Source of the DNA: Gemmatimonadota bacterium
GTDB taxonomy: Bacteria > Gemmatimonadota > Gemmatimonadetes > JACCXV01 > JAHWKZ01
Length of the DNA stretch: 55,869 nucleotides
NCBI GenBank assembly: GCA_035699465.1
Contig: DASSPT010000070.1
Coordinates: 1 to 55,869 of the forward strand
Reading direction: 5' to 3'
The notes beneath the pieces were generated by a model that was not told the DNA's origin, searched no databases, and worked only from the letters and a program-made list of their open reading frames with translations. Of this stretch, positions 37,431 through 55,869 are shown one piece after another (position 1 is the first letter of the stretch; the number at the start of each line of letters is the position of its first letter). A program made the translations under genes and the position numbers.

Positions 37431-38305
37431 GCGTCGGGGCGGGGCTCGCGCCGAGCCCCGGCCGCCAGGATCTCCGAAAGCGGCTCGTGACGGCGATCGT
37501 GCTGGGCCCACTGTTTCTGGGGGCCGTCGCGATCGGCGGAGTGGTCTTCCTGGCGGCGATCCTGGCTCTGGTCGGCGTCGGATCCTGGGAGTTTTTTCGC
37601 CTGGCTTCCCGGAAACGCCCTCGTCCCCGGAGCGTTCCCGGGGTCGGCATCGCGCTCCTTTTTCCCCTCCTTTTCTATCTGGCGCCCGCGAGTCCGATCA
37701 CCATTCCGGGCCTCGTCGTTCTGGCGGTAATCGGCGTGGCGCTCGCGCAGCTCCTGGACGGGGAGGCGGACGAGGCGATGGGAAGCGTGGCGATCACCGT
37801 CTACGGCGCGGCGTACGTGGGACTGCTCTTCGGACATTTCGTTCTGATCCGCGAGATCGGCCGCGTCGTTCCAGGAATGCCGTACTGGTGGGGGGGCGTG
37901 CTCGTCGGCATGACGGTCCTTCTGGCTTGGCTCAACGACTCCGCGGCGTACTTCATCGGCCACCGCTGGGGCAGGCACAAGCTGATTCCCAGGATCAGTC
38001 CTGGAAAGACGATCGAGGGCGCAGCGGGCGCTCTGATCGTGACGATGCTCGTCGCGGTGGGCGTGGTGCTGGCGGCCGGGAGCCGGATGCCGCTGCTCGC
38101 GCCCGCGGACGCGCTGGCGATCGGCGCGCTGGTCGCGGTAACGGGACCGATCGGCGACCTCGTCGAGTCGGCCTTCAAGCGCGATGCCGGGGTGAAGGAC
38201 GCGAGCGATCTCGTTCCCGGGCACGGAGGCATCCTCGACCGGTTCGACAGTCTGATGGCGGTCGTCCCCGCGGTCTGGTACTACCTGCGGATCGTGGTCC
38301 TGTGA
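37427..38305 (+). CDS. cdsA: Phosphatidate cytidylyltransferase
   Basis: GTG 37427 overlaps the uppS TGA. Signature SAFKRDAGVKDASDLVPGHGGILDRFDS. Confidence 0.9.
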   Translation: MSVGAGLAPSPGRQDLRKRLVTAIVLGPLFLGAVAIGGVVFLAAILALVGVGSWEFFRLASRKRPRPRSVPGVGIALLFPLLFYLAPASPITIPGLVVLAVIGVALAQLLDGEADEAMGSVAITVYGAAYVGLLFGHFVLIREIGRVVPGMPYWWGGVLVGMTVLLAWLNDSAAYFIGHRWGRHKLIPRISPGKTIEGAAGALIVTMLVAVGVVLAAGSRMPLLAPADALAIGALVAVTGPIGDLVESAFKRDAGVKDASDLVPGHGGILDRFDSLMAVVPAVWYYLRIVVL

Positions 38306-39489: not shown

Positions 39490-39596
39490 CGAGCGGGCAG
39501 GGGGAGGACGGTGCGGATATATTCCGCCTCCAGAAGATCCCCGCAGAGCCATGGCAACGGACCCGAACCGGGAACGCGGTGTAGACGGAATCTCAG

Positions 39597-40955
39597 ATGC
39601 AGACGTTGATCCTGACCATCATCGTGCTCGGCGTTCTCGTGTTCGTCCACGAGCTGGGTCACTTCGTGACGGCGAAGTGGGCGGGCGTGGGGGTTCCGCG
39701 CTTCTCGATCGGCCTCGGCCCCCGGCTCGTGGGAGTGCAGATCGGCGAGACCGACTACTGCATATCGGCCATCCCCTTCGGCGGCTACGTGAAGATGACG
39801 GGCATGGAGGGGGAGGAGGCCTTCGAGGGCCTGGAGGGCGGTGCGTCGGAGAGCGGGGAAGCCTCGGCGCCAGAGAAGCGGTTCGAGAACAAGAGCCTGG
39901 CCTGGCGGCTGGCGATTCTCTCGGCGGGCGTCGCCATGAACTTCCTCCTCGGATGGGTGATCTACGTCTCGCTCGCCTGGCACGACGGCATCCCGACGGT
40001 CAACGGGACCGCCGTTGCGCGCGTCGACTCGACGATCGCCGCGGCGCACCCCGAACTGGCCGCCGTCGCGGGCGAGACCATCCGGATGGTCGAGGGTCGC
40101 GGCGTGGCGAACTGGCACCAGCTGACCGAAACGATCCTCGAGGCGGAGGACGGCGCGTTGGAGATCGAGCTGGCGTCGGGCCAGTCGGTAACGCTACCGA
40201 TGACCGACGCGGGAGATCGCGAAGAGGTGGCCTACGCCCTGGTTCCGCTCGTCCCGTCGGTGATCGACGAGGTCCAGGACGGAAGCCCCGCCGCCCGCGG
40301 GGGAATCAAGCCCGGGGACAGGATCGTATCGATCGACGGGATCGAAACGCGGTCGTTCGATCGGGTCACCGAGGTGGTCCAGGCACGTCCCGACCAGATC
40401 CTGCCCGTCGTCGTGGAGCGCACCGTGGACGGGGCGACCCGCGAGCTTACCCTGACCATCGAGACCGGGGTCGATAAGGCGCCGCGGCCGACCGATGGCA
40501 AGTTCGTCGACGTGGGAATGCTGGGCGTGGCGCGGGAGAATGAGCGCATCCGTCTGAGCCCCATGGAATCCCTCGTAACCGGAACCACAGCCGCGGGCCG
40601 CGCGTCGATGCTCATCCTGAGCGGCCTTCGGGACATCGCGACGGGTGGCGTGAGCCTGAAGGCTGTCGGCGGTCCGGTGGCGATCGGTCAGCTCACCGGC
40701 CACTTCGCGCGCCAGGGAATGAGCAGCCTGCTCGGGTGGGTGGCTCTGTTCTCGATCAACCTCGCGATCCTCAACCTGCTGCCGATTCCGGTCCTGGACG
40801 GCGGTCACATCATGTTCCTCGGCATCGAGGCGCTCCGTCGGCGGCCGCTGTCGGCGACTCAGAAGCTCCGCCTTTCCCAGGTGGGTCTCGCGTTCCTGGT
40901 GCTGCTGATGGCCTGGGCCTTCACCGCGGACATCCTGCGCCTCGTCGGGTTCTAG
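39597..40955 (+). CDS. rseP: RIP site-2 metalloprotease RseP
   Basis: 452 aa. HELGHF zinc motif, PDZ domain (GIKPGDRIVSIDG), and NLLPIPVLDGGH. Confidence 0.93.
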   Translation: MQTLILTIIVLGVLVFVHELGHFVTAKWAGVGVPRFSIGLGPRLVGVQIGETDYCISAIPFGGYVKMTGMEGEEAFEGLEGGASESGEASAPEKRFENKSLAWRLAILSAGVAMNFLLGWVIYVSLAWHDGIPTVNGTAVARVDSTIAAAHPELAAVAGETIRMVEGRGVANWHQLTETILEAEDGALEIELASGQSVTLPMTDAGDREEVAYALVPLVPSVIDEVQDGSPAARGGIKPGDRIVSIDGIETRSFDRVTEVVQARPDQILPVVVERTVDGATRELTLTIETGVDKAPRPTDGKFVDVGMLGVARENERIRLSPMESLVTGTTAAGRASMLILSGLRDIATGGVSLKAVGGPVAIGQLTGHFARQGMSSLLGWVALFSINLAILNLLPIPVLDGGHIMFLGIEALRRRPLSATQKLRLSQVGLAFLVLLMAWAFTADILRLVGF

Positions 40956-40999
40956 TGCCGGGCCCGTCCGGTCCGGGACGCTAGCGCCAGGAAATCGCC

Positions 41000-42016
41000 A
41001 TTCCGCATCCGATCCTCCTCACCCTGACGACGGATCGCTCGGGCACCACGCTGCTGACGACCAGCTTTCGCTCGGGTTGGGGCGACCGCGCGCGGGTCGA
41101 GCACGAGCCGCTCGTCCACGCGGCGCGGCCGCGCCACCTGTTCCGCTGCTTCGACGCCGAGCGCCAGGATGCGGCGCTGAGGGATCCCGCGATCGGCGGG
41201 TTCGTGCGCGACGTCGCCCGCGTGTCCGACCGCAAGCCGGTCCTCATCTTCGGAAACACGATCTCCCATCTGGCGCCGGTCTTCCACCGTGTGCTCGGTA
41301 CGCGGATCCGTTTCCTGCACCTGCACCGGGATCCGGTCGTCACCGCGGCTTCGATGTACGTCAGGATAAAGCCCGAGTGGTGGCGCCGGCCGGCCTATGA
41401 GGATGATCCGAACGGCATGCGGATCACGCCCTTCGATCCGCACGCGAGGTTCGTCGAATACAGGGATCGATGGGCCGATCTCTCGCTGTTCGAGAGGATC
41501 CTCTACGAATGGGCCGAACGGCACGCCGCCGCGCTGGAGACGCACGAGCGACTGCCCGCCGCGCCGTTTCTCTCCGTGCTCTCGGAGGACCTGTTCGCGG
41601 CCCCTATCGCGGTAATCGAGAGGCTGGCGGCGTTCATGGGTCTCGAGCACCCGGAGCGAATCGCCGAAGTTGCCGCTCGACGCAACGCGACCTGGGACCG
41701 GTCCCGCGAGCAGCGCCCCCTCGGCGACGCCTGGCGCGCGTACGAGTCGCACCCCGCCGTCCTCACGCTCGCGGCGCGGCTCGGCCACCCGATCGACCCG
41801 GCGAGGCTCGAGCGTCAGATGGAGCGCTACCAGCTGCCGCCTGGCCTCCTGCCCTGGATCCGCCACACGACGAGGTATTGGGAGCTGCGCGGGCGCGCGG
41901 CGGGCTGGCTCAGAGAGCGGGGAATCGTCCCGGCCCCCTCCGACGCCATGCGTGGCTTGCCGCCTCGCCGACTCACGGGAGCGCTCCGCGAAGCGCTCCT
42001 TCGACGGAGAGGCTAG
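41000..42016 (+). CDS. Sulfotransferase 1 (PAPS-dependent family); start codon non-canonical or gene 5'-damaged
   Basis: The frame is open from 40985. It encodes ILLTLTTDRSGTTLLTTSF (5'-PSB loop) at 41012-41068, but the first ATG/GTG/TTG is GTG 41204, downstream of that loop. ATT 41000 follows AGGAAA (40989-40994). Confidence 0.6.
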   Translation: MPHPILLTLTTDRSGTTLLTTSFRSGWGDRARVEHEPLVHAARPRHLFRCFDAERQDAALRDPAIGGFVRDVARVSDRKPVLIFGNTISHLAPVFHRVLGTRIRFLHLHRDPVVTAASMYVRIKPEWWRRPAYEDDPNGMRITPFDPHARFVEYRDRWADLSLFERILYEWAERHAAALETHERLPAAPFLSVLSEDLFAAPIAVIERLAAFMGLEHPERIAEVAARRNATWDRSREQRPLGDAWRAYESHPAVLTLAARLGHPIDPARLERQMERYQLPPGLLPWIRHTTRYWELRGRAAGWLRERGIVPAPSDAMRGLPPRRLTGALREALLRRRG

Positions 42017-43021
42017 ATGGCGGACCGGCCCACTGGCGGAGGAGGCCGGAGCGGCTCCGGCGGCAAGGGGCGGGGCGGCAAGGGCCGCGGAGCCGGGGGC
42101 AAGGGCCGCGGACCCGGGGGCAAGGGCCGCGGCGGCGGCAAGGGCCGCGGACCCGGAGGCAAGGACCGCGGCGGCGGCAAGGGCCGCGGACCGGCAGGGA
42201 AAGGGCGCCCGGGAGGGAAGCGAGGTCACCCCGGCAAGCCGCGCGGTGCGGCAGTCGCGAACCGCGGCCGGGCGACGAGCCGGCCGCCCGTGCGGCAGCG
42301 GGGGCCGCGGCCGGAGGTCGTGATCTTCGCCAAGGCCCCCCTCCCGGGAACCGTGAAGACCCGGCTCACCCCTGCGCTCGGTGCCGACGAGGCGGCCGAT
42401 CTGTACCGGGCGCTCCTCGTCGATACGATCGAGGTCGCCGAATCCGCGGACGCGCGCCTGACGGTCGCTTTCACGCCGGCTACAAGCCGCCGCCACCTCG
42501 AGCGCCTCCTCGGGCCCCGGCGCCGGCTCCTCATCCAGCCGCCCGGAGATCTCGGCGAGCGCATCGAGGCGGTCGTGGGGCAGGTCCAGCGAAGCAAGGG
42601 GGCGCGCGTCATCGTCGTGGGAAGCGACTGCCCGGGGTTGACGACCGCGCGGATCGAAGAAGCGTGGAGCGCCCTGGCGGAGGTTCCGATCGTCCTCGGT
42701 CCGGCGGCCGACGGCGGCGCCTACCTGATCGGATTCGCGCGGCCGGCAGCCGGACTCCTGCGTGACGTTCCTTGGAGTACGGGCCGCGAACTCGGGGCGA
42801 TACGCGGCCGTCTCGCGGAACGAGGGATCGCACATCGCGAGCTCGCGCCTGAACGGGACCTCGACACGCCGCGCGATCTGTTCGAATGGTTCGTCGCGGC
42901 GCGCCAGGCGGGCCTAGAGTCGTCCTATCCGCGGACCTGGAAGACCCTTCACTCGCTGATGACTCCACGCCGGTCCGCGGAGATCGAAACGCAGTTGAGC
43001 GAATCCCGCCCTGCGACTTGA
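42017..43021 (+). CDS. DUF2064 (TIGR04282-like, CofC/MobA-fold) transferase-like protein with about 100-aa polycationic Gly/Lys/Arg repeat N-terminus
   Basis: 334 aa. The core begins VVIFAKAPLPGTVKTRL, with VGSDCPGL and AADGGAYLIG. The ATG directly abuts the upstream TAG. The alternative GTG 42320 would remove the repeat tail, but GGAGG lies only 2 nt from it. Confidence 0.75.
   Translation: MADRPTGGGGRSGSGGKGRGGKGRGAGGKGRGPGGKGRGGGKGRGPGGKDRGGGKGRGPAGKGRPGGKRGHPGKPRGAAVANRGRATSRPPVRQRGPRPEVVIFAKAPLPGTVKTRLTPALGADEAADLYRALLVDTIEVAESADARLTVAFTPATSRRHLERLLGPRRRLLIQPPGDLGERIEAVVGQVQRSKGARVIVVGSDCPGLTTARIEEAWSALAEVPIVLGPAADGGAYLIGFARPAAGLLRDVPWSTGRELGAIRGRLAERGIAHRELAPERDLDTPRDLFEWFVAARQAGLESSYPRTWKTLHSLMTPRRSAEIETQLSESRPAT
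42062..42250 (+). repeat. In-frame degenerate 15/18/21-nt tandem repeat encoding about 10 copies of GKGRG(x)(G)
   Basis: Units GGCAAGGGCCGCGGA(CCCGGG / GCCGGG / CGGC) repeat head to tail. The translation is GKGRGGKGRGAGGKGRGPGGKGRGGGKGRGPGGKDRGGGKGRGPAGKGRPGGKRGHPGKPRGA. Confidence 0.9.
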
Positions 43022-43100
43022 CTTGCGGCCATTACCGGGGGATCTTTCGCGCGAAGTCCGGGTCGACTTCGGGACCTTTACGCCGTACGAAGGAGACTGC

Positions 43101-43817
43101 GTGACACCATCGCCATCTGCGGCGCCAGTCCCGGCCACGACCACCGCAAGCCCTCTCTCGGTCGTGACAGGGGCCGCCGGTGAAGACCCCATCCCCCTTG
43201 AAAGCGAGTCCCTGCCGAAGCGGGCGTTGGACCTCGCCTTCGGGGGGTTTCTGCTGCTGGCGACCGCACCCGCCTGGCCGCTGATCGCCCTGGCGGTCAA
43301 GCTTGAGGACGGGGGCCCGGTTTTCTATCGTCAGCGCAGATGGGGGCAGGGCGGCAAGCTGTTCGAGCTGTTCAAGTTCCGCACAATGGTCCCGGACTCG
43401 GACGAGAAGCACGGAGTGGTCGAGGCTTGCGACGAGGACGATCGCGTCACGCGAGTGGGCGCCGTGCTGCGCAGCTTCGGCATCGACGAGCTGCCGCAGG
43501 TGCTCAATATCATGAAGGGGGAGATGAGCTTCGTCGGTCCGCGGCCGCTCGCGGTCGGAGAGGTGGTGCATGACGACGACGGGAACCCCACCGTTTGGGA
43601 CCGTTTGCCGGAGTTCCGGCGCCGGATGAGTGTCCGCCCGGGGCTGACCAGCCTGGCTACCCTGTATCTGCCCAAGGACGTGGAGCGCAGGAGGAAGTTC
43701 CGCTACGATCTGCTCTACATTCGGAAGCGGTCCCTGTGGCTCGACGTTCGTCTCATCGCACTGTCCCTGTGGGTCAGCGTTTCCGGTCGCTGGGAGACCC
43801 GCCAAGAGAAGATCTGA
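43101..43817 (+). CDS. Initiating phosphoglycosyl transferase (bacterial sugar transferase family, small monotopic type)
   Basis: GTG 43101 lies 5 nt after AGGAG. KRALDLAFGG, FELFKFRTM, and DELPQVLNIMKGEMSFVGPRP. Confidence 0.88.
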   Translation: MTPSPSAAPVPATTTASPLSVVTGAAGEDPIPLESESLPKRALDLAFGGFLLLATAPAWPLIALAVKLEDGGPVFYRQRRWGQGGKLFELFKFRTMVPDSDEKHGVVEACDEDDRVTRVGAVLRSFGIDELPQVLNIMKGEMSFVGPRPLAVGEVVHDDDGNPTVWDRLPEFRRRMSVRPGLTSLATLYLPKDVERRRKFRYDLLYIRKRSLWLDVRLIALSLWVSVSGRWETRQEKI

Positions 43818-43830
43818 CTCGAGGTCCGGC

Positions 43831-45980
<2,150 letters not shown>

Positions 45981-46082
45981 TCCTATCTCGCGGCATGACC
46001 GCCCGCCGTCGGGTCCGCGGCGAAGCCCTCCACATCGACCCAGGCTACGCCGATCACCAACCTAAATGAGGGAACGAGACCG

Positions 46083-46955
46083 ATGAGCGCGCAAGGCGGA
46101 CTCGATCGTACCGCGGATGACCGTTGGGTCACGGTACTGAGTCCGGAGACAAGATGGCTCGATTTCCGGCTCGGGGAGCTGTGGCGGTATCGGGACCTCG
46201 TCGCGCTGTTCGTCCGGCGTGACTTCCTGGCTCAGTACAAGCAGACTGTCCTGGGGCCCGCCTGGCACGTGATCCAGCCGATCCTGACGACCGTAACGTT
46301 CACGATCGTGTTCGGGCGCATCGCTCGCATCCCGACCGACAGCCTGCCACCCTTCCTGTTCTATTTCGCGGGCTACGTGATCTGGAGCTATTTCGCCACG
46401 ACGCTGGCCAAGATCTCGAACACGTTCATCGCGAATGCGAACATGTTCGGCAAGGTCTACTTCCCGCGCATGGCGATTCCGGTATCCATCTCCATATCCA
46501 GCATGATCTCCTTCGGAATCCAGTTCGCGCTCTTCCTCGGCTTCCTGGCGTATTTCCAGATGCGGGGAGCCCCGGTGGATCCCAACGCCTGGCTGCTGGC
46601 GTCCCCGCTGCTGGTCGTCCTGATGGGAGCGCTGGGGCTGGGCTTCGGCATCATCGTGTCGTCCTTGACTACGCGCTATCGCGACATGACCAATCTGGTG
46701 GCTTTCGGAGTCCAGCTCCTCATGTATGCGACGCCGATCGTATACCCATTGTCAGCGGTGCCGGAAAGGTATCGACTGGTCGTCCTCGTGAACCCGATGT
46801 CGGCGCTGGTGGAGGCTTTCCGGTTCGGCTTCCTGGGCGCCGGGACCGTGAGCGTCGGCCATCTGGCCTACAGCGTGGTGTTCACCGTCGCGATCCTGAT
46901 GTGCGGGGTCCTGCTGTTCAATCGAGTAGAACGCAATTTCATGGACACGGTCTAG
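46083..46955 (+). CDS. wzm: ABC-2 type polysaccharide export permease
   Basis: 290 aa. RDFLAQYKQTVLGPAWHVIQP N-terminal signature and six TM helices. Confidence 0.88.
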   Translation: MSAQGGLDRTADDRWVTVLSPETRWLDFRLGELWRYRDLVALFVRRDFLAQYKQTVLGPAWHVIQPILTTVTFTIVFGRIARIPTDSLPPFLFYFAGYVIWSYFATTLAKISNTFIANANMFGKVYFPRMAIPVSISISSMISFGIQFALFLGFLAYFQMRGAPVDPNAWLLASPLLVVLMGALGLGFGIIVSSLTTRYRDMTNLVAFGVQLLMYATPIVYPLSAVPERYRLVVLVNPMSALVEAFRFGFLGAGTVSVGHLAYSVVFTVAILMCGVLLFNRVERNFMDTV

Positions 46956-46971
46956 AGGTGAGAGGGCAGGC

Positions 46972-48252
46972 ATGAGCGTGATTCGCGTCGACAACGTATC
47001 CAAGCAGTATCGCCTGGGTATGATCGGCGCCAGCACCCTGAGGGAAGACCTGCAGCGCTGGTGGCATCGCACCAGGAACGACGAAGAACCTTGGAAGGTC
47101 GGCGAGAAAATCCCGCCCGGAGGCGGCAACGGGGACCGCATCTGGGCGCTCCGTGGCGTCGACTTCGGCATCGACGCGGGTGAGGTCGTCGGACTGGTGG
47201 GCGAGAACGGAGCCGGCAAGAGCACACTGTTGAAGATCCTCTCCCGGATCACCGTCCCCACGACGGGCAGGATCGAGCTGCACGGCCGCGTGGGCAGCCT
47301 GCTCGAAGTCGGCACGGGCTTCCACCCCGAGCTCACCGGACGCGAGAACGTGTTCCTGAACGGCGCGATCCTCGGCATGACGAAGGCGGAGATCCAGCGG
47401 AAGTTCGACGCGATAGTCGAATTCTCCGGCGTGGAGAGGTTCATGGACACACCGGTGAAACGGTACTCCTCGGGTATGCGGGTGCGGCTCGCGTTCGCGA
47501 TCGCCGCTCATCTGGAACCGGAGATCCTGCTGGTCGACGAGGTCCTCGCCGTGGGCGACGCTGCCTTCCAGAAGCGGTGCCTCGGCAAGCTCGACGAAGT
47601 GTCCAAAGAGGGCCGGACGGTGATCTTCGTCAGCCATCACATGTCCGCGATCGCTTCTCTCTGTAAGCGCGCGATCCTGTTGAAGGATGGGCAGGTACTG
47701 ATGGACGGCCCCGCGGCCGAGACCATCGACCGCTACCTCTCTTCGAATCCGAGCAGCGGTCCCCGGTACGGGGAAGTTCGATTCTCGAGCGAGGGGAAGG
47801 CGGGTCCCTTTCAGCTCCTGGCTGTCAGGACGTGTTCCATGGACGGCGAGATCCGTTCCGATTTCAAGAGCCAGGAGCCCGTGGTCGTGGAAATGGAGTT
47901 CAACCTCCTGCAACCTTTGCCCTTCCTGAAGATAGGCTTCGAGCTGCACGCGCTGACCGGGGGCCTCGTGTTCCAGACATTCCACAACGATCGAGAAGAG
48001 CTTCTGACCGGGTCAAGTCGGGACGCGGCGCAGATCCTTCAGGCCATCATTCCCGCCGACCTCCTGAACGGCGGCATCTACCATGTATACCCCTGTGTCA
48101 CGATCCACGGCCGCGAGTGGCTGGTGAAGGACGTCGAAGGCCCCGCCATAAACGTCGTTTACGACGTGCCGAACCCGGACTACGTGGTGCTCGGACGGCC
48201 GGGGGAGATCGCGCCCCTGCTGACCTGGCAAGTCGTGCCTGCGCGCGCGTGA
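46972..48252 (+). CDS. wzt: Polysaccharide ABC exporter ATPase with about 170-aa C-terminal extension
   Basis: 426 aa. Walker A GENGAGKST, signature YSSGMRVRL and Walker B LLVDEVLA. The extra C-terminal beta-rich domain resembles the Wzt glycan-cap-binding domain in its placement. Confidence 0.88.
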   Translation: MSVIRVDNVSKQYRLGMIGASTLREDLQRWWHRTRNDEEPWKVGEKIPPGGGNGDRIWALRGVDFGIDAGEVVGLVGENGAGKSTLLKILSRITVPTTGRIELHGRVGSLLEVGTGFHPELTGRENVFLNGAILGMTKAEIQRKFDAIVEFSGVERFMDTPVKRYSSGMRVRLAFAIAAHLEPEILLVDEVLAVGDAAFQKRCLGKLDEVSKEGRTVIFVSHHMSAIASLCKRAILLKDGQVLMDGPAAETIDRYLSSNPSSGPRYGEVRFSSEGKAGPFQLLAVRTCSMDGEIRSDFKSQEPVVVEMEFNLLQPLPFLKIGFELHALTGGLVFQTFHNDREELLTGSSRDAAQILQAIIPADLLNGGIYHVYPCVTIHGREWLVKDVEGPAINVVYDVPNPDYVVLGRPGEIAPLLTWQVVPARA

Positions 48253-48261
48253 GCGGGACAC

Positions 48262-49188
48262 ATGGCCAGCCCCGTTTCCGTCATCATCCCCGTCCATAAT
48301 CGCCCCGAGTTTCTCCTGGGAGCCGTCGACTCGCTGATCGCGACCCGCTACCCGGCACTCGAGATCGTGATCGTCGATGACGGGTCGAGCGACGACACCC
48401 TGATCCGGGCGCGGCAGCTCGAGGAGCGCTTTCCGCGGCTGATCCGGGTGTTCCAGCACCACGACCGCGGGAACCACGGGCCCGGGACATCGCGGAACGT
48501 GGGAGTGCGGATGTCGTCGGGCGAGTACGTATGCTTCCTGGACTCGGACGACGTGGTGCTGCCGAACCGGTTCCATGTCGCCGTGCCCCTGCTGGACGGG
48601 GATCCCGCCATCGATGGAGTCGCCGAGCGCTTCCTGGTCCAGGAAGGGCAGACTGGACCGCCCATGGAAGAGCCTGGAAGGGCGGTGCCGCTGGAGGGGG
48701 TGCCGGGCCCGCGCATTCGGTGGCATACGAACTCGATTCTTCTCAGGCGGCGGTGCTTCCTGGAGGCCGGGGGCTTCAGCGAGCGCCTGAGGACGTGTGA
48801 GGATCTCGCCCTTTGGCTGAAGCTCCTTCTCTCGGCACGCATCGTTCCAGGGGGGCCGGATCCCGTGGTCGTCAACCGGCGCCACGAAGGGAACCTGGAC
48901 GTGATCCTCGAGAACAGCCTTCTCGCCTACCTGGAGGCGCTGGCGTGGACGCGCGGCCGCGGCCTCCAGCCAGAGCGGATCGCCGCTCTGCGGGAGGTGA
49001 TCTGGGGGAAGACGCTGTTCGTCTGCGACCGGTTGATGCGCCGGGGGGACTTCCGCCTGGCGATCCGCATGCTGCGTTCCTCGGCCAGGGCGAACCCCGC
49101 GTTTCTGCTGCGCACGCGCTACTGGAGGAACATGCTGCGGGCCCTTCTGTCGACGAGAGCCAGGGGTGCCGAAGCGGTGGGCCCCTGA
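48262..49188 (+). CDS. Glycosyltransferase family 2
   Basis: 308 aa. VSVIIPVHNRPEFL, VDDGSSDDT, and FLDSDD. Confidence 0.88.
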   Translation: MASPVSVIIPVHNRPEFLLGAVDSLIATRYPALEIVIVDDGSSDDTLIRARQLEERFPRLIRVFQHHDRGNHGPGTSRNVGVRMSSGEYVCFLDSDDVVLPNRFHVAVPLLDGDPAIDGVAERFLVQEGQTGPPMEEPGRAVPLEGVPGPRIRWHTNSILLRRRCFLEAGGFSERLRTCEDLALWLKLLLSARIVPGGPDPVVVNRRHEGNLDVILENSLLAYLEALAWTRGRGLQPERIAALREVIWGKTLFVCDRLMRRGDFRLAIRMLRSSARANPAFLLRTRYWRNMLRALLSTRARGAEAVGP

Positions 49189-50174
49189 TGTCCGCTCCCA
49201 CGATCACGATCGTCACTCCCAGCCTCAATCAGGGTCAGTTCCTGGAGGAAACACTGCGCTCGGTTCTGGACCAGAAGCTGCCCGGCCTCGAGTACATCGT
49301 CATCGACGGCGGGAGCAGCGACGGGACAGTGGACATCCTGCGACGCTACGAGGGGCGGCTCGCCCGTTGGGTGAGCGAGCCCGATCTCGGCCAGGCCGAC
49401 GCGATCAACAAGGGGTTTTCGCTGGGTACCGGGGAGATCTTCGGATACCTGAATAGCGACGATATGCACGCCCCCGGATGCCTGACCCGCGTGGTGACGG
49501 ATTTCCGGTCCGGACCCGCTCGGGCGTGGCACGCGTATCCGGTGGAGACCTTCTCGGCCGACCGCGTCATCGCAGTCGAGTCGCCTCCGACGCTCGGTCG
49601 AAGGCTGGCGGAGACCCTTTCCGAAGATGAGGCACCACCCACGAACGATCTCCTCCAGTGGGTACTCGGGCAGGTCAGCCTTCACCAGCCAGGCGTCTTC
49701 TGGCGTCGGGAACAGTGGGCCGCGGTCGGGGGCTTCGATACCCGATACCATTACGCGTTCGATCGGCATTTCTTCATGAAGCTCATCGCGGCGGGCTACC
49801 CGCTCGTCTGTCACGGCGGGCTCCCGGTCGCGCGGTTCCGCCTTCACGAACAGTCCAAGACGGGGATGCATCTCGGCGGCGCGGACAATCGCTTCGTCCG
49901 GGAACGAATGCGGATCTGTGACGAGCTCGAACGGGCGCTGCCTCCGGGGGAACGAAAACTCGCCCGGCGCGTGAGAACCGACGACGCGATCTCGACGAGC
50001 TGGAGGATGTTCCGCGAAGGGGCATCGCGGCGCAGCTGCTGCCTGTGGCTCGGCCGCCTGGCACTGTCGCGCCGCGAGGCCCTGCGGAGTCGATACTTCT
50101 GGGGGAGCGCCGCGCGGTTCCTGATGCGGCCCCGGCCGCCGGACCGGCGGATCGGGGAGCGTCGATCCCCATGA
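49188..50174 (+). CDS. Glycosyltransferase family 2
   Basis: ATG 49188 overlaps the upstream TGA by 1 nt. ITIVTPSLNQGQFL, IDGGSSDGT, and YLNSDD. Confidence 0.85.
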   Translation: MSAPTITIVTPSLNQGQFLEETLRSVLDQKLPGLEYIVIDGGSSDGTVDILRRYEGRLARWVSEPDLGQADAINKGFSLGTGEIFGYLNSDDMHAPGCLTRVVTDFRSGPARAWHAYPVETFSADRVIAVESPPTLGRRLAETLSEDEAPPTNDLLQWVLGQVSLHQPGVFWRREQWAAVGGFDTRYHYAFDRHFFMKLIAAGYPLVCHGGLPVARFRLHEQSKTGMHLGGADNRFVRERMRICDELERALPPGERKLARRVRTDDAISTSWRMFREGASRRSCCLWLGRLALSRREALRSRYFWGSAARFLMRPRPPDRRIGERRSP

Positions 50175-51520
50175 GCCGTCCCTCCCGCCCGGGATCCCGG
50201 CGCCTGCTGTTCGTGGCCGGCTCCGCCCACCTTCTCGGCGGGCTGGCGAGCTGGCTCGACTACGTCCTCCCCGGCCTGGCCGGACGGGGCTGGGATCCGG
50301 TGCTGGGGCTGGTCGAGGGGCCGCGTCATCACCGGCCGGAGCGCTTGATCGCGGCGCATCCCCACGAGCGCTGGATCCGGATCCCGAGCCCGACGGGAAC
50401 GCCGGAGGGGCGCTGCCGCGCGCTGGCCGAAGCGCTCATCGACCAGCGGCCGTCCGTCGCGCTCTCCGTGAACATCCCGGACCTCTTCCCGGCCCTCCAC
50501 CGGGTCCGAGGCGCGGGGAACGCCGTGCGCGGCGTCATGACGGTGCACGGGATCGAGCCCGAGCTCTACGCCGACGCCTTCCGGTTCCGGGAGGTCATGG
50601 ATGGAGCGGTGGCCACGAACCGCCTTGCCTGCCGGCTTCTCGAAGCGATCGGAGGCATCGTCTCGGAACGGGTCTTCTATGCGCCGTACGGCGTGGAGAC
50701 GCAGGTGTACGGTGTCCGCGAGAGGGGCAACGGATCGCCCCTGTGCATCGGATACTCCGGAAGGCTGGAGCAATCCCAGAAGCGGGTCGGCGATCTGCCG
50801 CTCGTCGCGCAAGCACTCGATGCCATGGAGGTACGCCACGCATGGGCGATCGCGGGTGACGGCCCCGAGGAGGGCAGTCTGCGTCGCGACATGCCGGCAG
50901 GCCGGACGACCTTTCTCGGGCCGCTGGCGGTGGGCGAGATCGGCCGGCTCCTGTACGCGCGGATCGACGCCCTGGTCGTACCCTCGGCATGGGAGACGGG
51001 GCCGCTCGTCGCCTGGGAGGCGATGGCCGCCGACGTTCCGGTGGTCGCATCGCGCTACCTGGGATCCGGACTCGAGGCCGCGCTGCGACACGAGGAGAAC
51101 GCGCTCCTGTTCGACCCGGGCGACGCCGAGGCCGCGGCGCGTCAGCTGGCCCGGATCGCGCGGGAGCCAGGGCTCTCCGACCGATTGGCCGCCGGGGGGC
51201 GGGAGCTCCTGCGGCAGCGGTACAGCCGGGAGCGCTCCGTCGAGGCGTGGGAACGGGCGATCGAAGCGGTCCTCGCGCTGCCGTCCCTGCCGCCGGCCGG
51301 CCCGCCGCGGGTCCCGCCGGCCAGCGGGCGCCTCGAGCGGTGGGTGGGAGCGGGCCGGGCCGAAACCATCCGCCGCCTGCTGGGCCGGACCGGCCCGGAT
51401 GCCGGCTCGGGGGGCGAGTGGCCTCACGCGTACGGAGCGGGGCTCGAGCGGGGCGCGTTCTTTCGCCGCGCGGCGGAGCTGGACCGGGTCGAGTCCGGGC
51501 ACGCGTGCTCGCGCCCGTGA
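50171..51520 (+). CDS. Glycosyltransferase family 4 (GT-B fold)
   Basis: ATGA overlap at 50171. C-terminal VVPSAWETGPLVAWEAMAADVPVV (EX7E region). Confidence 0.82.
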   Translation: MSRPSRPGSRRLLFVAGSAHLLGGLASWLDYVLPGLAGRGWDPVLGLVEGPRHHRPERLIAAHPHERWIRIPSPTGTPEGRCRALAEALIDQRPSVALSVNIPDLFPALHRVRGAGNAVRGVMTVHGIEPELYADAFRFREVMDGAVATNRLACRLLEAIGGIVSERVFYAPYGVETQVYGVRERGNGSPLCIGYSGRLEQSQKRVGDLPLVAQALDAMEVRHAWAIAGDGPEEGSLRRDMPAGRTTFLGPLAVGEIGRLLYARIDALVVPSAWETGPLVAWEAMAADVPVVASRYLGSGLEAALRHEENALLFDPGDAEAAARQLARIAREPGLSDRLAAGGRELLRQRYSRERSVEAWERAIEAVLALPSLPPAGPPRVPPASGRLERWVGAGRAETIRRLLGRTGPDAGSGGEWPHAYGAGLERGAFFRRAAELDRVESGHACSRP

Positions 51521-52488
51521 AGCTCGCCGCAGGGCAGGCGTGGTCCGCGTGGCGGGGGTATCCAGCCATGCGGCGCGCGCTCCTCGCCGCCCGGCCCGGA
51601 CCGCCCATTCTGGTCACCGGCGTATACCGCTCGGGAACCACCTGGGCCGGCGCCATGCTCGCGCCGGCGGGCCTGTGGCACCTCCACGAGCCCTTCAACC
51701 CGAACCGCGGGCTATGGCAGGACGAGCTGGCCTATGCCGAAGCAGGGACGGCCCAGCCGGAGATCGACCGTCTCGTGGCGGAGCTCCTGGGCGGCGGGCA
51801 CCGCGCGACACTCCGTCTGCCGAGGTCGGGCCGCTGGTTCACGCCTCTGCGACTCCTGCCGATCAAGCCGCGACGCGTCCTGATCAAAGACCCCTCGGCG
51901 GCGCTGCTCTCCGAGTACCTCGTTCGCCGGCACGGAATGCGGACCTTGATCCTGTTCCGTCATCCCGCGGCCGTTGTCGGCAGCTTCCTGCGTCTCGGAT
52001 GGCCGACCGGATCGCTCGTTGGAAGGCTGCTCGCGAGCGCCCCGCTCATGGATGGGCCGCTGGCGGGCATGGGTGAGGCGATGGAGGAGGCGGCCGGCCG
52101 CGATGGCGCGTTCCCGGGGAGCGTGCTCTGCGCATGCCTCGCGCGTGCGCTGTGGGATTTCTCGGAGCGAAACCCCGACTCGATGATCCGCGCGTCCTTC
52201 GAGGAGCTCTGCCGCGACCCGATCGGCGGATTCCGCGCGCTGTTCGAGCGCCTCGATCTCGCCTACGACGATCGGGTGCGGGAGGAGCACTTCCGGCTGA
52301 CGGCCGGGGGGGAGAATGGCGAGGACGGCGAGCACGGAGTGGTTCGTGCGAGCGTAGAGCTCGCGGAGCGGTGGCGGAGCCGGGTTCAGGAGGCCGATCT
52401 GAAGGTGATCCGGAGCACCTGGGAGCGCCTCGGCCCCCCGCTCTATCGCGAGCCCGTCGACTGGCCGCCGGAAGGGGAGCGCGCATGA
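51517..52488 (+). CDS. Sulfotransferase 2
   Basis: GTGA overlap at 51517 (alternative ATG 51568). PAPS 5'-PSB loop ILVTGVYRSGTTW, and a RHP region FRHPAAVV (3'-PB-like). Confidence 0.8.
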   Translation: MKLAAGQAWSAWRGYPAMRRALLAARPGPPILVTGVYRSGTTWAGAMLAPAGLWHLHEPFNPNRGLWQDELAYAEAGTAQPEIDRLVAELLGGGHRATLRLPRSGRWFTPLRLLPIKPRRVLIKDPSAALLSEYLVRRHGMRTLILFRHPAAVVGSFLRLGWPTGSLVGRLLASAPLMDGPLAGMGEAMEEAAGRDGAFPGSVLCACLARALWDFSERNPDSMIRASFEELCRDPIGGFRALFERLDLAYDDRVREEHFRLTAGGENGEDGEHGVVRASVELAERWRSRVQEADLKVIRSTWERLGPPLYREPVDWPPEGERA

Positions 52489-53585
52489 ACAGCTCCGGGG
52501 ACGCAGGCAGCAGGAAGGCCGGAGTCCGGACGAAGCTCGGCGCGATCCTCCTCGATTGGCCGACTTACGAATGGAACCTCCACGGCGCGAACGGCTCTCC
52601 AGGCAGGCACTGGACGCGGATCGGCAATCGCCGCGATCACATTCGGCACGGTCCGGAGGGCCGGGGCGCGTGGCCGGAAGGCCGCTGGACGAGCCGACTA
52701 CACGCCTGCGAGGTCTTTCCCTCGCTGGGCGGCCGCCTCATGGCGCGCGCGCTCCGGGAATGGCCGCTCGCGTTCGCGGATCGGCCGTCGTCGGGCCACG
52801 GGGACGCCGAGCCCGACGTGACGTTCGTGATCGGCCACCGGGGGATCGAGCGCCTGCCCCATCTGTCGCGGGTCCTCGCCACGATCGCGGCGCAGGCCGG
52901 CGCGACGGTCGAATGCGTGCTCGTCGAGCAATCCGCGCGGCAGGAGATCGCCGGACGCCTGCCGGATTGGGTGCGGTACCTTCATACGCCGATCACGGAC
53001 GGGATGCCCTACTCGCGCGCGTGGGCGTTCAACGTCGGCGCCCGCGCGGCGCGGGGCGGCGTGCTCGTCTTCCACGACAACGACATGCTGGCGCCGCGAG
53101 GCTACGCCGCCGAGGCGCTGTCCGTGCGTGCCAGAGGGTTCGAGGTCATGAACTTGAAGCGCTTCGTCTTCTACCTGGGCGCGCGCGAGAGCGGCCGCGT
53201 CCTGGCGGGCGCGCCGGTCGAAGGCCGTCCGGAGCGGGTCGTGCAGAACCTCGAGGGAGGCGGGAGCGTGGCGGTCGATCGAGCGGCCTTCTTCGCTGTC
53301 GGCGGCTTCGACGAAGCGTTCGTCGGATGGGGCGGCGAGGACAACGAGTTCTGGGAGCGCTGCGCGGCGCGCAGGGTATGGCCCTGGGGCTATCTCCCGC
53401 TGGTACACCTCCACCACGACGAGCAGCCCGGCAAGGGCCGGCGGGACCGCGCCACCGCGCGGCTGCTGGACGAGCGCTCGCGTCTGCCGGCGGAGGCGCG
53501 CGTGCGCGAGCTGTCGGCCCGCGCCTTCGGGCGGATCGAGGGTCCGGATCCGGCGTACAGGGAGTCCCCCGAGGGAGCCGCATGA
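52485..53585 (+). CDS. Glycosyltransferase, GT-A fold with galactosyltransferase-like C-terminal motif
   Basis: ATGA overlap at 52485. VTFVIGHRG, FHDNDM (DxD), and GWGGEDNEFWER. Confidence 0.75.
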   Translation: MNSSGDAGSRKAGVRTKLGAILLDWPTYEWNLHGANGSPGRHWTRIGNRRDHIRHGPEGRGAWPEGRWTSRLHACEVFPSLGGRLMARALREWPLAFADRPSSGHGDAEPDVTFVIGHRGIERLPHLSRVLATIAAQAGATVECVLVEQSARQEIAGRLPDWVRYLHTPITDGMPYSRAWAFNVGARAARGGVLVFHDNDMLAPRGYAAEALSVRARGFEVMNLKRFVFYLGARESGRVLAGAPVEGRPERVVQNLEGGGSVAVDRAAFFAVGGFDEAFVGWGGEDNEFWERCAARRVWPWGYLPLVHLHHDEQPGKGRRDRATARLLDERSRLPAEARVRELSARAFGRIEGPDPAYRESPEGAA

Positions 53586-54565
53586 TCGAGCCCGGTCTCG
53601 TATCGACCATCGTTCCCGTGCATGACCGGTCGGCGATGCTGCTCGACGCCGTCGAGAGCGTGCTCGCCCAGTCGTACCGGCCCCTGGAGATCCTCATCGT
53701 CGACGACGGATCGACCGACGACACGCCGGCGGTGGCGGACGCGCTGGCAGCCGATCATCCCGAAGTGCAGGCGATCCACGTCCCGAACGGCGGCCCGGGC
53801 GTCGCCCGGGAGGCCGGCCGCCGGCGGGCGCGCGGGGAGTTCGTCCAGTACCTCGACAGCGACGACGTGCTGCTGTCCGGCAAGTTCCAGAGCCAGGTGC
53901 GCGCCCTGAGCGCGGATCCCGAGTGCGGCGTGTGCTATGGGATGACCCGCTACATCGACGCGGCCGGCGAGGGCGCCGACCGCGCCTGGCGACGCACCGG
54001 AGAACGGATCGAGCGCATGTTCCCGTCGTTTCTCGTCGATCGCTGGTGGGGCACGTCGACGCCGCTCTACCGCCGCAGCGTCACGGACGCGGCCGGCCCC
54101 TGGACGGCGCTCCGGAACGAGGAGGACTGGGAGTACGATTGCCGCGTGGCGGCGCTCGGGCGCCCCCTGGCGTACGTGTCCGAGTTCGTGTCCGAGCAGC
54201 GCGGGCACGCCGCCGATCGCCTGAGTCGCGACGGCTCGAGCGACCCGGCCAAGCTGCGCGACCGGGCGGCGGCCCATGCGCTCATCCTGAAACATGCCGA
54301 GCGGGCGGGGATCGGACCGCAGCAAGAGGAAATGCGCCATTTCGTCCGCGAGCTCTTTCTACTCTCCCGGCAATGCGGCGCCGCCGGTCTCGGCTTCGAG
54401 GCGCGCCACCTCCATGCGCTGGCAGTCCGGTCGGCGAAAGGCGGCGAGGACGGCAGGATCGACCTGCGGATCTACGGGGCACTGGCCTCGGTCCTGGGAT
54501 GGGATCGCATGGGGAGCCTGACGTGCGCGCTCGATCGCCGGCGCGCGCGGCGCGGGAAGCCGTGA
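53582..54565 (+). CDS. Glycosyltransferase family 2
   Basis: ATGA overlap at 53582. VSTIVPVHDRSAML, VDDGSTDDT, and YLDSDD. Confidence 0.88.
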   Translation: MIEPGLVSTIVPVHDRSAMLLDAVESVLAQSYRPLEILIVDDGSTDDTPAVADALAADHPEVQAIHVPNGGPGVAREAGRRRARGEFVQYLDSDDVLLSGKFQSQVRALSADPECGVCYGMTRYIDAAGEGADRAWRRTGERIERMFPSFLVDRWWGTSTPLYRRSVTDAAGPWTALRNEEDWEYDCRVAALGRPLAYVSEFVSEQRGHAADRLSRDGSSDPAKLRDRAAAHALILKHAERAGIGPQQEEMRHFVRELFLLSRQCGAAGLGFEARHLHALAVRSAKGGEDGRIDLRIYGALASVLGWDRMGSLTCALDRRRARRGKP

Positions 54566-55416
54566 GGAGCGGCGACGTCTTCGTGCACGGGGTGCTCCCC
54601 CGGTCGGGGACCAACTACCTCGCGCGGGCGCTCCAGTGCCACCCCGACCTCCGCGCGAGTCCCCGGAGCGTGTGGGAGTTCCCACACCTGCCCAATTCCG
54701 ATCCGCTGGTCACGTATGCCCGCTCGATGGCACGCGCGCCGAACCTCCCCGAACTGGACGAGGACGATGTCCTGGAACTCGTTGGCGACGCGTGGCTGGA
54801 GTGGGCGTCCGCCGGGCTCCCGGCGGGCCGCCGCCTGGTGCTCAAAGAACCGTCCGTCCGGAACCTGGACCGCTTCCTTCGATTCTTCCCCCGGTCCTTT
54901 CTCGTGATCCTCATGCGGGACGGCCGCGACATCGCGTGCTCGTCGCTGCGCACCTCGTTCGCGGCGCCCCCCTGCTTCCGTGTCTTTCATCCCGGCACCT
55001 ATCGCCGGGCATTCCGCAGTCCCCTCGGGGAGCTGGCGCGCAGGTGGCGCGATGCGAGCCGGACCGTGGGCGCGTTTCTGGAGACGCCCGAAGGGCGTGA
55101 GCGGGCGCGCGTCGTGCGTTTCGAGGATCTCGTCCGGGAGCCGGAATCGCAGCTGCGCGGGATGCTCGAGTTCCTGGAGCTGCCGGCGGAGGACTTCGCG
55201 TGGGACTCCTTCCGGGCGCTGGGGGTACGGGGCTCCTCGTTCGTCGGCGAGTCGGGACAGAAGCTCGACTGGAGCGGCCGGCAGCCGACCCCGGAGGACT
55301 TCGATCCGGTGGGCCGCTGGCGGTCGTGGACCGAACGCGAGGTTCGCCGTTTCGAGGCGGTCGCCGGGGAGGAGCTCGCGCGCTGGGGGTATGCGGACGC
55401 CGTGGATTCCGGGTGA
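54562..55416 (+). CDS. Sulfotransferase 3
   Basis: GTGA overlap at 54562. The 5'-PSB loop is VFVHGVLPRSGTNYL, and LMRDGRD is the 3'-PB-like region. Confidence 0.8.
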   Translation: MRSGDVFVHGVLPRSGTNYLARALQCHPDLRASPRSVWEFPHLPNSDPLVTYARSMARAPNLPELDEDDVLELVGDAWLEWASAGLPAGRRLVLKEPSVRNLDRFLRFFPRSFLVILMRDGRDIACSSLRTSFAAPPCFRVFHPGTYRRAFRSPLGELARRWRDASRTVGAFLETPEGRERARVVRFEDLVREPESQLRGMLEFLELPAEDFAWDSFRALGVRGSSFVGESGQKLDWSGRQPTPEDFDPVGRWRSWTEREVRRFEAVAGEELARWGYADAVDSG

Positions 55417-55869
55417 GCGAGCCGCGCGCGTTCCTCGTCGCGGGCCACCCGCGATCGGGTACTACCGTGCTGACCCGGCTGCTGAACACGCATCCCGAGG
55501 TCGAGGCCACGTTCGAGCTGGGCGCGTTCGCGCGACTGGACGCGCCGTATCCGGAGTATCGGCGCGCCTTGCGCCTGAGCTATCGCGATCGCCCCGTGCG
55601 TGGCGTAGGAGCCGGGTCTCCCCGGGCGAGGACCTGGGCCAGCCGGCGCTTCTTGGCCGAGTTCCGCTATCGCCTGTGGAGGAGGCGTCGCGGCGTGATC
55701 GGGCTGGATACCGTCGCCGACCTCCTCTCCCGGACGCTCCGCCGCTCGTGGGTCGGCGACAAGCTGCCGAGCTACGTGTTCGAGCTCGACGACCTGGCTC
55801 CACGGGAAGGGCTGGACCGCATCGTCATCCTCCGCGACTGCCGCGCGGTCACGGCTTCGACCCTGGCGC
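55413..55869 (+). CDS. Sulfotransferase 4 (5' partial; runs off the window end; absent from the ORF track)
   Basis: GTG 55413 overlaps the upstream TGA. The translation VSEPRAFLVAGHPRSGTTVLTRLLNTHPEV... stays open to the last base. It includes VILRDCR (3'-PB-like). Confidence 0.7.
   Translation, partial: MSEPRAFLVAGHPRSGTTVLTRLLNTHPEVEATFELGAFARLDAPYPEYRRALRLSYRDRPVRGVGAGSPRARTWASRRFLAEFRYRLWRRRRGVIGLDTVADLLSRTLRRSWVGDKLPSYVFELDDLAPREGLDRIVILRDCRAVTASTLA

Follow-up and report, generated by a model that had tools for sequence, protein, structure and literature searches.

What surface polymer, if any, is specified by the long run of overlapping genes at the end of a 55,869-nt stretch of Gemmatimonadota DNA (contig DASSPT010000070.1 of assembly GCA_035699465.1, positions 1 to 55,869; hereafter the window)? 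A first-pass annotation, made from the sequence alone, had taken the genes from 41000 onwards for an undescribed pathway to a fucoidan-like or heparinoid-like sulfated glycan exported by an ABC transporter, and we followed up this proposal computationally. At its end the window contains the opening 15 kb of a surface-glycan locus, chromosomal and about 33 kb long, that is found in a clade of soil Gemmatimonadota. Judged by gene families, structural models and gene order, its product is probably an O-antigen-like, lipid-linked glycan which would be multiply sulfated in the cytoplasm before its export by a Wzm/Wzt transporter.

Since the window DNA is about 70% G+C (20 kb yielded 73 open reading frames (ORFs) of 100 aa or more), raw ORF lists were useless, and genes were called using a frame plot of G+C at third codon positions (GC3) together with a position-specific GC gene caller. 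The GC3 frame plot placed every gene between 36101 and 55869 on the + strand and counted 15 co-directional, mostly overlapping genes between 41000 and the window end, in agreement with the roughly fifteen described earlier. The called boundaries agreed almost exactly with those of the first-pass annotation. Read directly, the junctions at 50171, 52485 and 53582 are ATGA overlaps and those at 45000, 51517, 54562 and 55413 are GTGA overlaps. Six of the seven overlaps of these two types in the first-pass annotation were recovered; the seventh, at 49188, is a 1-nt overlap (TGATG), and the one at 45000 is an addition. Just one gap of more than 20 nt, 102 nt long and 5' of wzm, was observed inside the window part of the locus. 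A promoter/terminator scan of 39500-55869 found no promoters, and terminator-like sites stood at chance level (6 versus 5.2 expected). The genes are as follows.

41000-42016 (ORF from 40988), + strand: sulfotransferase ST1 (Pfam PF13469, 32.2 bits)
42017-43021, + strand: DUF2064/TIGR04282 GT-A-like (CofC-like) transferase (Pfam DUF2064, 97 bits)
43023-43817, exact start uncertain, + strand: small monotopic phosphoglycosyl transferase, PGT (Pfam Bac_transf, 184 bits)
43831-45003, + strand: geranylgeranyl-reductase-family flavin adenine dinucleotide (FAD) reductase, 390 aa (Pfam FAD_binding_3)
45000-45980, + strand: Fcl-type GDP-4-keto-6-deoxymannose epimerase/reductase (Pfam Epimerase/GDP_Man_Dehyd)
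46083-46955, + strand: Wzm, ABC-2 permease (Pfam ABC2_membrane, 65.6 bits)
46972-48252, + strand: Wzt ATPase with C-terminal extension (Pfam ABC_tran, 82.7 bits)
48262-49188, + strand: glycosyltransferase (GT) of family GT2, copy a (Pfam PF00535, 97.5 bits)
49188-50174, + strand: GT2, copy b (Pfam PF00535, 81 bits)
50171-51520, + strand: GT4 (Pfam Glycos_transf_1, Glyco_trans_1_4)
51517-52488, + strand: sulfotransferase ST2 (Pfam PF13469, 30.9 bits)
52485-53585, + strand: GT-A enzyme with a beta4GalT-like C-terminal motif, GWGGEDNEF (Pfam Glyco_transf_7C, 44.5 bits)
53582-54565, + strand: GT2, copy c (Pfam PF00535, 102 bits)
54562-55416, + strand: sulfotransferase ST3 (Pfam PF13469, 74.3 bits)
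55413-55869, + strand: sulfotransferase ST4, cut by the window end (Pfam PF13469, 40.3 bits)

Pfam and, for the GT-A enzyme, a reading of its motif bear out the five GTs (three GT2, one GT4, one GT-A), the DUF2064 protein, the small PGT and the Wzm/Wzt pair of the earlier gene list, from which only the reductase at 43831-45003 had been omitted. Relatives were obtained from one scan of species-representative genomes with ST3 (L002-L004, Gemmatimonadota metagenome-assembled genomes) and by way of homologues of ST1, ST2 and a membrane protein encoded further downstream (contigs L009-L014).

Sulfotransferases and their probable acceptor

All four sulfotransferases scored above the gathering cut-off of PF13469 (Sulfotransfer_3; 27 bits), ST4 as a partial sequence. 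A check of catalytic residues, suggested along with the first-pass annotation, found that each keeps a 5'-phosphosulfate-binding loop for 3'-phosphoadenosine 5'-phosphosulfate (PAPS; DRSGTT in ST1, YRSGTT in ST2, PRSGTN in ST3 and PRSGTT in ST4) and a 3'-phosphate-binding R-x7-S motif (RDPVVTAAS, RHPAAVVGS, RDGRDIACS and RDCRAVTAS, respectively). A glutamate stands 21-25 residues past the PAPS loop in all four (EHEP, HEP, WEFP, FEL; it is E58 in ST2), and we take it to be equivalent to the catalytic base of tyrosylprotein sulfotransferase (TPST) or Stf0. Outside this loop the four proteins are mutually unalignable (best BLASTP E value 9e-4, over 21 aa) and, because the BLASTP matches are limited to the loop itself, we judge them not to be recent paralogues. 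Pfam, the loops and BLASTP therefore agree with the earlier description of four mutually divergent sulfotransferases.

The weakest profile evidence among the four was that for ST2, for which 85 homologues were found. In an alignment of 43 sequences of its family (22-90% identity), G35, R38, E58-P59, D125-P126, R148, P150 and S156 were invariant. Its AlphaFold model has a predicted local distance difference test (pLDDT) score of 92.5 and a predicted template modelling (pTM) score of 0.91, and all 50 of the 50 matches listed in a Foldseek search of the PDB were PAPS sulfotransferases with probability 1.00, among them the CurM sulfotransferase domain, TPST1/2 and mycobacterial Stf1 and Stf9. The model of ST1 is weaker (pLDDT 75); its top 20 PDB matches were sulfotransferases, as were nearly all matches listed. 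ST1 belongs to a small family (266 cluster representatives among 1.84 billion) and is extended at its C-terminus by a basic, conserved stretch of about 110 aa. The window holds the first 152 of the approximately 261 aa of ST4, a part which is 93% identical to the N-terminus of a full-length 261-aa gene in L002; the full-length copy in L003 scores 74 bits against PF13469. No transmembrane or signal segments were predicted in the sulfotransferases, glycosyltransferases or other soluble enzymes of the locus. By class, ST1-ST4 are thus predicted PAPS-dependent sulfotransferases, and their coupling within the operon points to carbohydrate as the probable acceptor.

We considered whether these enzymes might instead sulfate a non-glycan substrate (peptide tyrosine as TPST does, a lipid or a small molecule) and be merely co-located with the glycan genes. 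The nearest solved relatives of ST3 are TPSTs (E 7e-10), the top Foldseek matches of ST1 and ST2 include TPSTs and CurM/olefin-synthase sulfotransferase domains, and acceptor specificity is unreadable from sequence. The likeness of ST3 to TPSTs would reflect its family and not necessarily its substrate. However, start/stop overlaps bind ST2, ST3 and ST4 to the flanking GT genes, the interleaving of sulfotransferase and GT genes is kept at 68-94% identity in L002, L003, L004 and L014, and sulfotransferase content covaries with GT content across lineages, whereas the locus contains no peptide-precursor or lipid-synthesis genes. In addition, the sole named NCBIfam model touched by ST3 and ST4 is NoeE, presumably a Nod-factor fucose sulfotransferase, at a very weak 28 bits against a cut-off of 500. 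We consider a non-glycan substrate highly improbable.

Proposed assembly and export of the glycan

The small PGT aligns to the C-terminal catalytic domain of WcaJ/WbaP/exopolysaccharide (EPS) sugar transferases and has a single hydrophobic segment (residues 71-92); its family suggests that it is the initiating enzyme, acting on polyprenyl phosphate. The reductase adjoins it in all relatives, shares a GTGA overlap with fcl and is 83-94% conserved in L009, L010 and L011. It scored 154 bits against TIGR02032 (cut-off 158.8), and its best PDB match was an archaeal digeranylgeranylglycerophospholipid reductase (3OZ2, E 9e-9). Haloferax, an archaeon, uses such a reductase to saturate dolichol phosphate (PMC10821996). 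By analogy we would guess that the enzyme may act on the polyprenol carrier, modifying or saturating it; in a bacterium, saturation would be unusual.

The DUF2064 protein exceeded the cut-off of TIGR04282 (166.8 versus 134 bits) and matched a putative nucleotide-diphospho-sugar transferase in the PDB (3CGX, E 1e-18); a literature search for "DUF2064" returned no papers. Its N-terminus is a polybasic Gly/Lys/Arg repeat tail of about 95 aa (42017-42310) with GGKGRG occurring about 8 times, encoded in part by a tandem repeat at 42057-42196 with DNA periods of 21/39/60. The repeat number varies in L015, L018 and L010, with the frame and basic charge kept, and the tail could bind the membrane or the polyanionic product. 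TIGR04282 takes its name, "arsenosugar biosynthesis glycosyltransferase", from a context that comprises a radical S-adenosylmethionine (SAM)/selenodomain (ArsS-type) gene and a TIGR04283 partner. No radical-SAM gene is present in the locus and its GT2 enzymes score 24-55 bits against TIGR04283 (cut-off 182), so that with neither companion an arsenosugar reading of the protein was rejected.

For Fcl, the 18 best PDB matches were all GDP-L-fucose synthases (E 3e-70 to 1e-35), while its NCBIfam NF047922 score of 281 bits lies under the equivalog cut-off of 500; the earlier name, GDP-L-fucose synthase, is supported by the former and not by the latter. The catalytic Cys, Tyr-x3-Lys and His are in place in the alignment, at positions which we take to be C109, Y136/K140 and H179 of the E. 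coli enzyme. An Fcl-type gene conserved in the head module, four to six sulfotransferases and the weak NoeE likeness of ST3 and ST4 would all suit a fucoidan-like (sulfated fucan) or heparinoid-like (sulfated glycosaminoglycan) polymer. Against this, fcl comes without gmd, which allows at most one residue type that is maybe a 6-deoxyhexose, and the eight or more different GTs argue for a heteroglycan and not a fucan. Neither the window nor the relatives contain a UDP-glucose dehydrogenase gene (ugd), a heparosan/chondroitin-type bifunctional synthase, an N-deacetylase/N-sulfotransferase or a C5-epimerase. Either product appears very unlikely, and we have dropped this part of the first-pass annotation.

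The genes for the exporter stand side by side, 16 nt apart. Wzm has the hydrophobic segments of a permease, and the best NCBIfam models for the pair were galactan Wzm/Wzt, TagH and KpsM, none of which was matched above its equivalog cut-off (Wzm against KpsM, 48.8 bits; cut-off 300). The C-terminal extension of Wzt, about 165 aa, is conserved, and a Wzt length of 424-426 aa is kept in L010, L013 and L014; a PDB sequence search with the C-terminal 166 aa gave no match. Wzx, a Wzy-polymerase context, Wzc/Wza and KpsE/D/S/C were found neither in the window nor in L002-L004 and L009-L014, and group 2/3 Kps parts (KpsE/KpsD and the KpsS/KpsC 3-deoxy-D-manno-octulosonic acid (Kdo)-linker enzymes) were likewise absent from the window and related loci. 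By its gene families, then, the pathway would be an ABC-transporter-dependent, polyprenol-linked one. The profile typing suggested earlier placed the four sulfotransferases in PF13469 and, as to sugar specificity, gave no equivalog-level NCBIfam match for any GT of the locus.

A possible mosaic origin had been raised for wzm on account of a line of about 53% GC at 46441-46500. The value is correct (0.533), but the GC3 of the gene is 0.83, against 0.81-0.89 in the cluster and 0.85-0.92 in its housekeeping neighbours. GC1 and GC2 alone drop, as expected for a membrane protein, because hydrophobic amino acids lower both. With a GC3 like that of its neighbours, and head genes about as conserved as frr and rseP, a mosaic or horizontally acquired wzm was rejected.

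In the pathway that we propose, the small PGT would prime polyprenyl phosphate on the inner membrane, at its cytoplasmic face, and the single-domain GT2, GT4 and GT-A enzymes, perhaps with the DUF2064 protein, would extend the chain, one donor probably being GDP-L-fucose or a related GDP-6-deoxyhexose supplied by Fcl. The four to six soluble sulfotransferases, with their unrelated acceptor-binding regions, would sulfate the chain before it leaves the cytoplasm, each at a different position. Sulfation should precede export because PAPS and soluble sulfotransferases are cytoplasmic, and the growing glycan would be the natural acceptor because ST2, ST3 and ST4 are start/stop-coupled to GT genes. 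Wzm/Wzt, as members of their family do, would then export the finished lipid-linked glycan, and the ligase-family protein encoded in the relatives would transfer it to lipid A-core or another acceptor. The earlier suggestion of cytoplasmic sulfation ahead of ABC export is supported in silico by motifs, folds, the lack of transmembrane segments and the coupling to GT genes.

The locus in relatives

The left boundary of the glycan locus is rseP, the last of the housekeeping genes that precede it in the window:

36101-36649, + strand: frr (Pfam)
36684-37430, + strand: uppS (Pfam)
37427-38305, + strand: cdsA (Pfam)
38302-39489, + strand: dxr (Pfam)
39597-40955, + strand: rseP, M50 protease with PDZ domain (Pfam Peptidase_M50, 213 bits)

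In relatives the upstream genes are rpsB, tsf, pyrH, frr, uppS, cdsA, dxr and rseP, and the rseP-ST1 junction is shared by L009, L010, L011, L016 and L018. It is followed by a conserved head composed of ST1, DUF2064, PGT, reductase, Fcl, a variable slot, Wzm and Wzt. The head genes of L009-L011 show 60-96% identity, compared with 76-96% for frr, uppS and rseP; in L010 the values are 85% for the PGT, 83% for the reductase and 74% for Fcl, against 85% for frr and 76% for rseP. Because conservation is about equal in the head genes and in the housekeeping genes beside them, sequence comparison indicates that the site is old and vertically inherited, and no island.

ST3 is 92% identical in L002, 79% in L003 and 68% in L004, and from wzt to ST4 the genes follow one another in the same order in L002 and L003 (74-94% protein identity) and in L004 (45-79%). 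An exact-protein look-up of ST3 returned one 1.5-kb Logan contig only. In four loci with distant ST3 relatives (L005-L008; Phycisphaerae, Acidobacteriaceae, Bradymonadaceae) tblastn found no Wzm/Wzt or comparable cluster, and these are uninformative on wider distribution.

As the first-pass annotation had expected, the locus continues past the window, and in relatives it extends about 18 kb beyond the point that matches the window end. The continuation seen in L012-L014 runs ST5, GT2, GT2, a Wzy_C-family protein, three GT4, GT2, a carbamoyltransferase, GT4 and EamA, of which all from the GT2 before the Wzy_C-family protein onwards forms a conserved tail; beyond it lie unrelated asparaginase_II and 4HBT thioesterase genes. 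ST5 is very probably located just past the window end, judging from these relatives, and close relatives have six sulfotransferases (ST1-ST5 and one of Sulfotransfer_2 type). The carbamoyltransferase (581 aa) is NodU-like, at 134 bits against a cut-off of 1000. The end of the tail (L012 6042-10679, L013 14883-19529), with a 256-aa GT2, the NodU-like carbamoyltransferase, GT4 and the EamA transporter, may serve as a module that carbamoylates this glycan or modifies it in the periplasm.

Between these flanks the middle block differs by lineage and holds one to five sulfotransferases. In L014, L002 and L003, wzt is followed by a Sulfotransfer_2/Gal-3-O-sulfotransferase-like gene and ST2 by an additional GT2 gene (in L014 at 5966-6754 and 10981-11982); the window lacks both, cleanly at gene boundaries (48252-48262 and 52485-52488). 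In L010 and L011, a GT61 gene, an unknown gene and a sulfotransferase gene are inserted before wzm, and L013 has five GT2 genes and only one faint sulfotransferase. A variable middle between conserved flanks is gene-content variation as in serotype loci, and the lineage-specific GT/sulfotransferase block would give rise to serotype-like variants with differing degrees of sulfation. In L004 (3-2788), Wzm and Wzt are 35% and 45% identical to those of the window while the adjoining sulfotransferase and GT genes are 52-79% identical, which suggests that the exporter was exchanged by recombination within the locus.

The earlier statement that no ligase gene is visible holds for the window, but relatives carry a gene of the O-antigen-ligase family about 8 kb past its end. 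The protein (469 aa, many hydrophobic segments) is the Wzy_C-family member of the tail, and one of its homologues is named "O-antigen ligase family protein" by NCBI; no NCBIfam ligase equivalog matched it. An O-antigen-like product fits best because of this protein, the adjoining GT4 run, the conserved flanks with a variable middle and the envelope-biogenesis neighbours.

The same assembly and export could also end in a product other than lipopolysaccharide (LPS), namely an O-glycan on proteins or the S-layer, for which the Wzy_C-family protein would serve as O-oligosaccharyltransferase, or a free or lipid-anchored capsule or EPS. Geobacillus has a Wzm/Wzt S-layer glycan pathway that is primed by a Bac_transf enzyme, WsaP, and here too initiation would be by a Bac_transf PGT and not by WecA. 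Wzy_C is common to WaaL ligases and PglL/WsaB-type O-oligosaccharyltransferases, the match is weak, the ligase equivalog is not hit, and the many single-domain GTs suggest a defined oligosaccharide. On the other hand, with its 469 aa and many hydrophobic segments the protein comes nearer to WaaL than to O-oligosaccharyltransferases, which are larger, going by the typical sizes of WaaL, PglL and WsaB. Capsule export parts (KpsE/D, Wza/Wzc) were found in no locus, and the conserved GT4 tail next to the ligase-family gene resembles core-oligosaccharide clusters. A non-LPS product is therefore, in our estimate, unlikely, though less so than the other alternatives considered here.

Several observations weigh against an O-antigen-like glycan sulfated before export. 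Priming is by a Bac_transf enzyme, whereas ABC-dependent O-antigens are classically primed by WecA, and the many single-domain GTs would permit a defined oligosaccharide rather than a polymer. The Wzt_C profile is weak on Wzt (19 bits, cut-off 30.4), and no WbdD-type chain terminator is recognisable in the locus. The Wzy_C score of the putative ligase is 20 bits, under the Pfam cut-off of 31.7, and its gene lies outside the window. As first noted, and as Pfam and further scans now show, the 55.9-kb window contains no gmd, cysDN/cysC or ligase gene; Fcl has no gmd partner in the related loci either, and cysDN/cysC/cysQ and gmd/manC are absent from the window and from about 45 kb of related loci, unlike published sulfated-capsule loci, which carry PAPS genes in cis. 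The glycan acceptor of each sulfotransferase is putative only, and the best PDB sequence matches of ST3 are the TPSTs mentioned above. Finally, in the reading frame of ST1 no ATG, GTG or TTG codon follows the in-frame stop at 40985-40987 before the PAPS loop is reached.

This last point concerns the first sulfotransferase as annotated at 41000-42016, which stands as a sulfotransferase by Pfam but begins, at 41000, with ATT. The ATT codon is conserved in six relatives (ATC in L018). In L015-L017 a 2-nt indel just upstream shifts the frame, while downstream of the codon changes appear to fall mostly in third codon positions, the alignment being judged by eye. Distant ST1 homologues with a normal Met (e.g. 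MTHPVLLT..., MNPLLVT...) begin at the position where the ATT aligns. Because ATT/ATC is conserved and the Met of distant homologues coincides with it, it is likely that ST1 starts at ATT. Public calls of the gene are 270-308 aa long and have lost the PAPS loop, so that ST1, a gene which appears to begin with ATT, is an annotation trap.

Known systems and neighbouring genes

How far does the locus differ from systems already described? In common with the Wzm/Wzt O-antigen pathways of E. coli O9a and Klebsiella, it has an ABC-2 permease and a Wzt with a C-terminal extension, cytoplasmic assembly on a polyprenyl carrier without Wzx, Wzy and Wzz, a ligase-family gene in the same super-locus (here in the relatives), and conserved flanks around a variable GT block. 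Here, however, a Bac_transf PGT primes in place of WecA and many single-domain GTs replace a few multidomain polymerases. A recognisable WbdD-type terminator is lacking, the C-terminal domain of Wzt is only weakly Wzt_C-like, and four to six sulfotransferases are present, with the reductase and the DUF2064 protein in the conserved head.

Chemically proven sulfated capsules from ABC-transporter loci with sulfotransferases have been reported for Cobetia marina KMM 1449 (PMC11766843) and Vibrio sp. KMM 8419 (PMC11641403). In these as here, GTs, PAPS-type sulfotransferase(s) and an ABC exporter are encoded together and sulfation is inferred to take place in the cytoplasm, ahead of export. The two gammaproteobacterial loci have solved product structures, group 2/3 Kps machinery (KpsMTED, KpsSC), cysDN/cysC/cysQ in cis and one to three sulfotransferases, whereas the present locus is known from its genes alone and has no Kps parts, no PAPS genes in cis and more sulfotransferases.

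The synechan (xss) cluster of Synechocystis PCC 6803 directs synthesis of a sulfated heteropolysaccharide, and ABC-type sulfotransferase clusters have been noted in cyanobacteria (PMC8205485). Like ours, the xss cluster is a dedicated locus, with eight GTs and sulfotransferases of distinct subfamilies. It is Wzx/Wzy/polysaccharide copolymerase (PCP)-dependent and plasmid-borne, with two sulfotransferases and the XssS/R/Q regulators; the Gemmatimonadota locus is Wzm/Wzt-type and chromosomal, beside rseP, and no regulator was seen in it. In S. meliloti, LPS is sulfated by LpsS (cited in PMC12445080). Rhizobial LpsS, NoeE and NodU resemble the present system in the PAPS-dependent sulfation of a surface or secreted glycan, but LpsS is a single Stf0-family enzyme encoded apart from glycan genes, whereas here the sulfotransferases lie among them, and the NoeE (28 versus 500 bits) and NodU (134 versus 1000) matches are far under their cut-offs.

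A literature search combining Gemmatimonadota/Gemmatimonadetes with sulfotransferase found nothing relevant. The claim of an undescribed pathway thus needs narrowing: ABC-exported sulfated capsules are published (Cobetia, Vibrio), and a few bacteria are already known to have a pathway of this kind. Novelty appears to lie in the phylum, in the setting of Wzm/Wzt rather than Kps, in how many and how diverse the sulfotransferases are, and in the conserved head module.

Genetically defined bacterial routes to sulfated polysaccharides are few (synechan, some marine capsules, rhizobial LPS/K polysaccharide (KPS)), and there is demand for such polymers as heparin-like or carrageenan-like materials of non-animal origin. 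Five to six candidate carbohydrate sulfotransferases, unrelated to one another and each paired with a GT, are available here as a compact set, and the locus predicts that a Wzm/Wzt pathway tolerates sulfated cargo. It further predicts a strongly anionic cell surface for an abundant, poorly studied soil phylum, a feature that would matter for desiccation tolerance, for metal binding and for recognition by phages. We regard it as a solid lead rather than a surprise.

A bolder combination of ideas can be formulated, which we put forward as speculation and think quite unlikely to hold in all its parts at once. A widespread clade of soil Gemmatimonadota would carry an outer-membrane O-antigen-like glycan with up to six distinct sulfate esters per unit and a charge density of the heparin class, varying in a serotype-like manner mainly by gain and loss of sulfotransferase genes. 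Its carrier during assembly would be a polyprenol partly saturated by the reductase homologue that the locus encodes, a trait otherwise associated with the dolichol of archaea and eukaryotes, and a sulfate or carbamoyl cap read by the divergent C-terminal domain of Wzt would license export. Gemmatimonadota are common in dry soils, and the hygroscopic polyanion could help explain this.

The rest of the window is housekeeping and includes a shikimate operon, glmM, glmS and ribosomal protein genes, among others. The shikimate/chorismate operon (43-7433) is compact, with overlapping genes for a glutamine amidotransferase, chorismate mutase, DAHP (3-deoxy-D-arabino-heptulosonate 7-phosphate) synthase, aroA, aroE, aroC, a fused aroK-aroB and aroQ. 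Two adjacent tRNA genes at 20278-20452 were the sole Rfam matches in the window. A GlcNAc (N-acetylglucosamine) 2-epimerase-family ORF of 431 aa at 31300-32595 (Pfam, 53.5 bits) was missed by the GC3-based caller, which suggests a lower GC3. It lies between mtnA and rplM, a slot which in L010 is occupied by a PIN toxin/antitoxin pair and which may therefore be a small variable islet.

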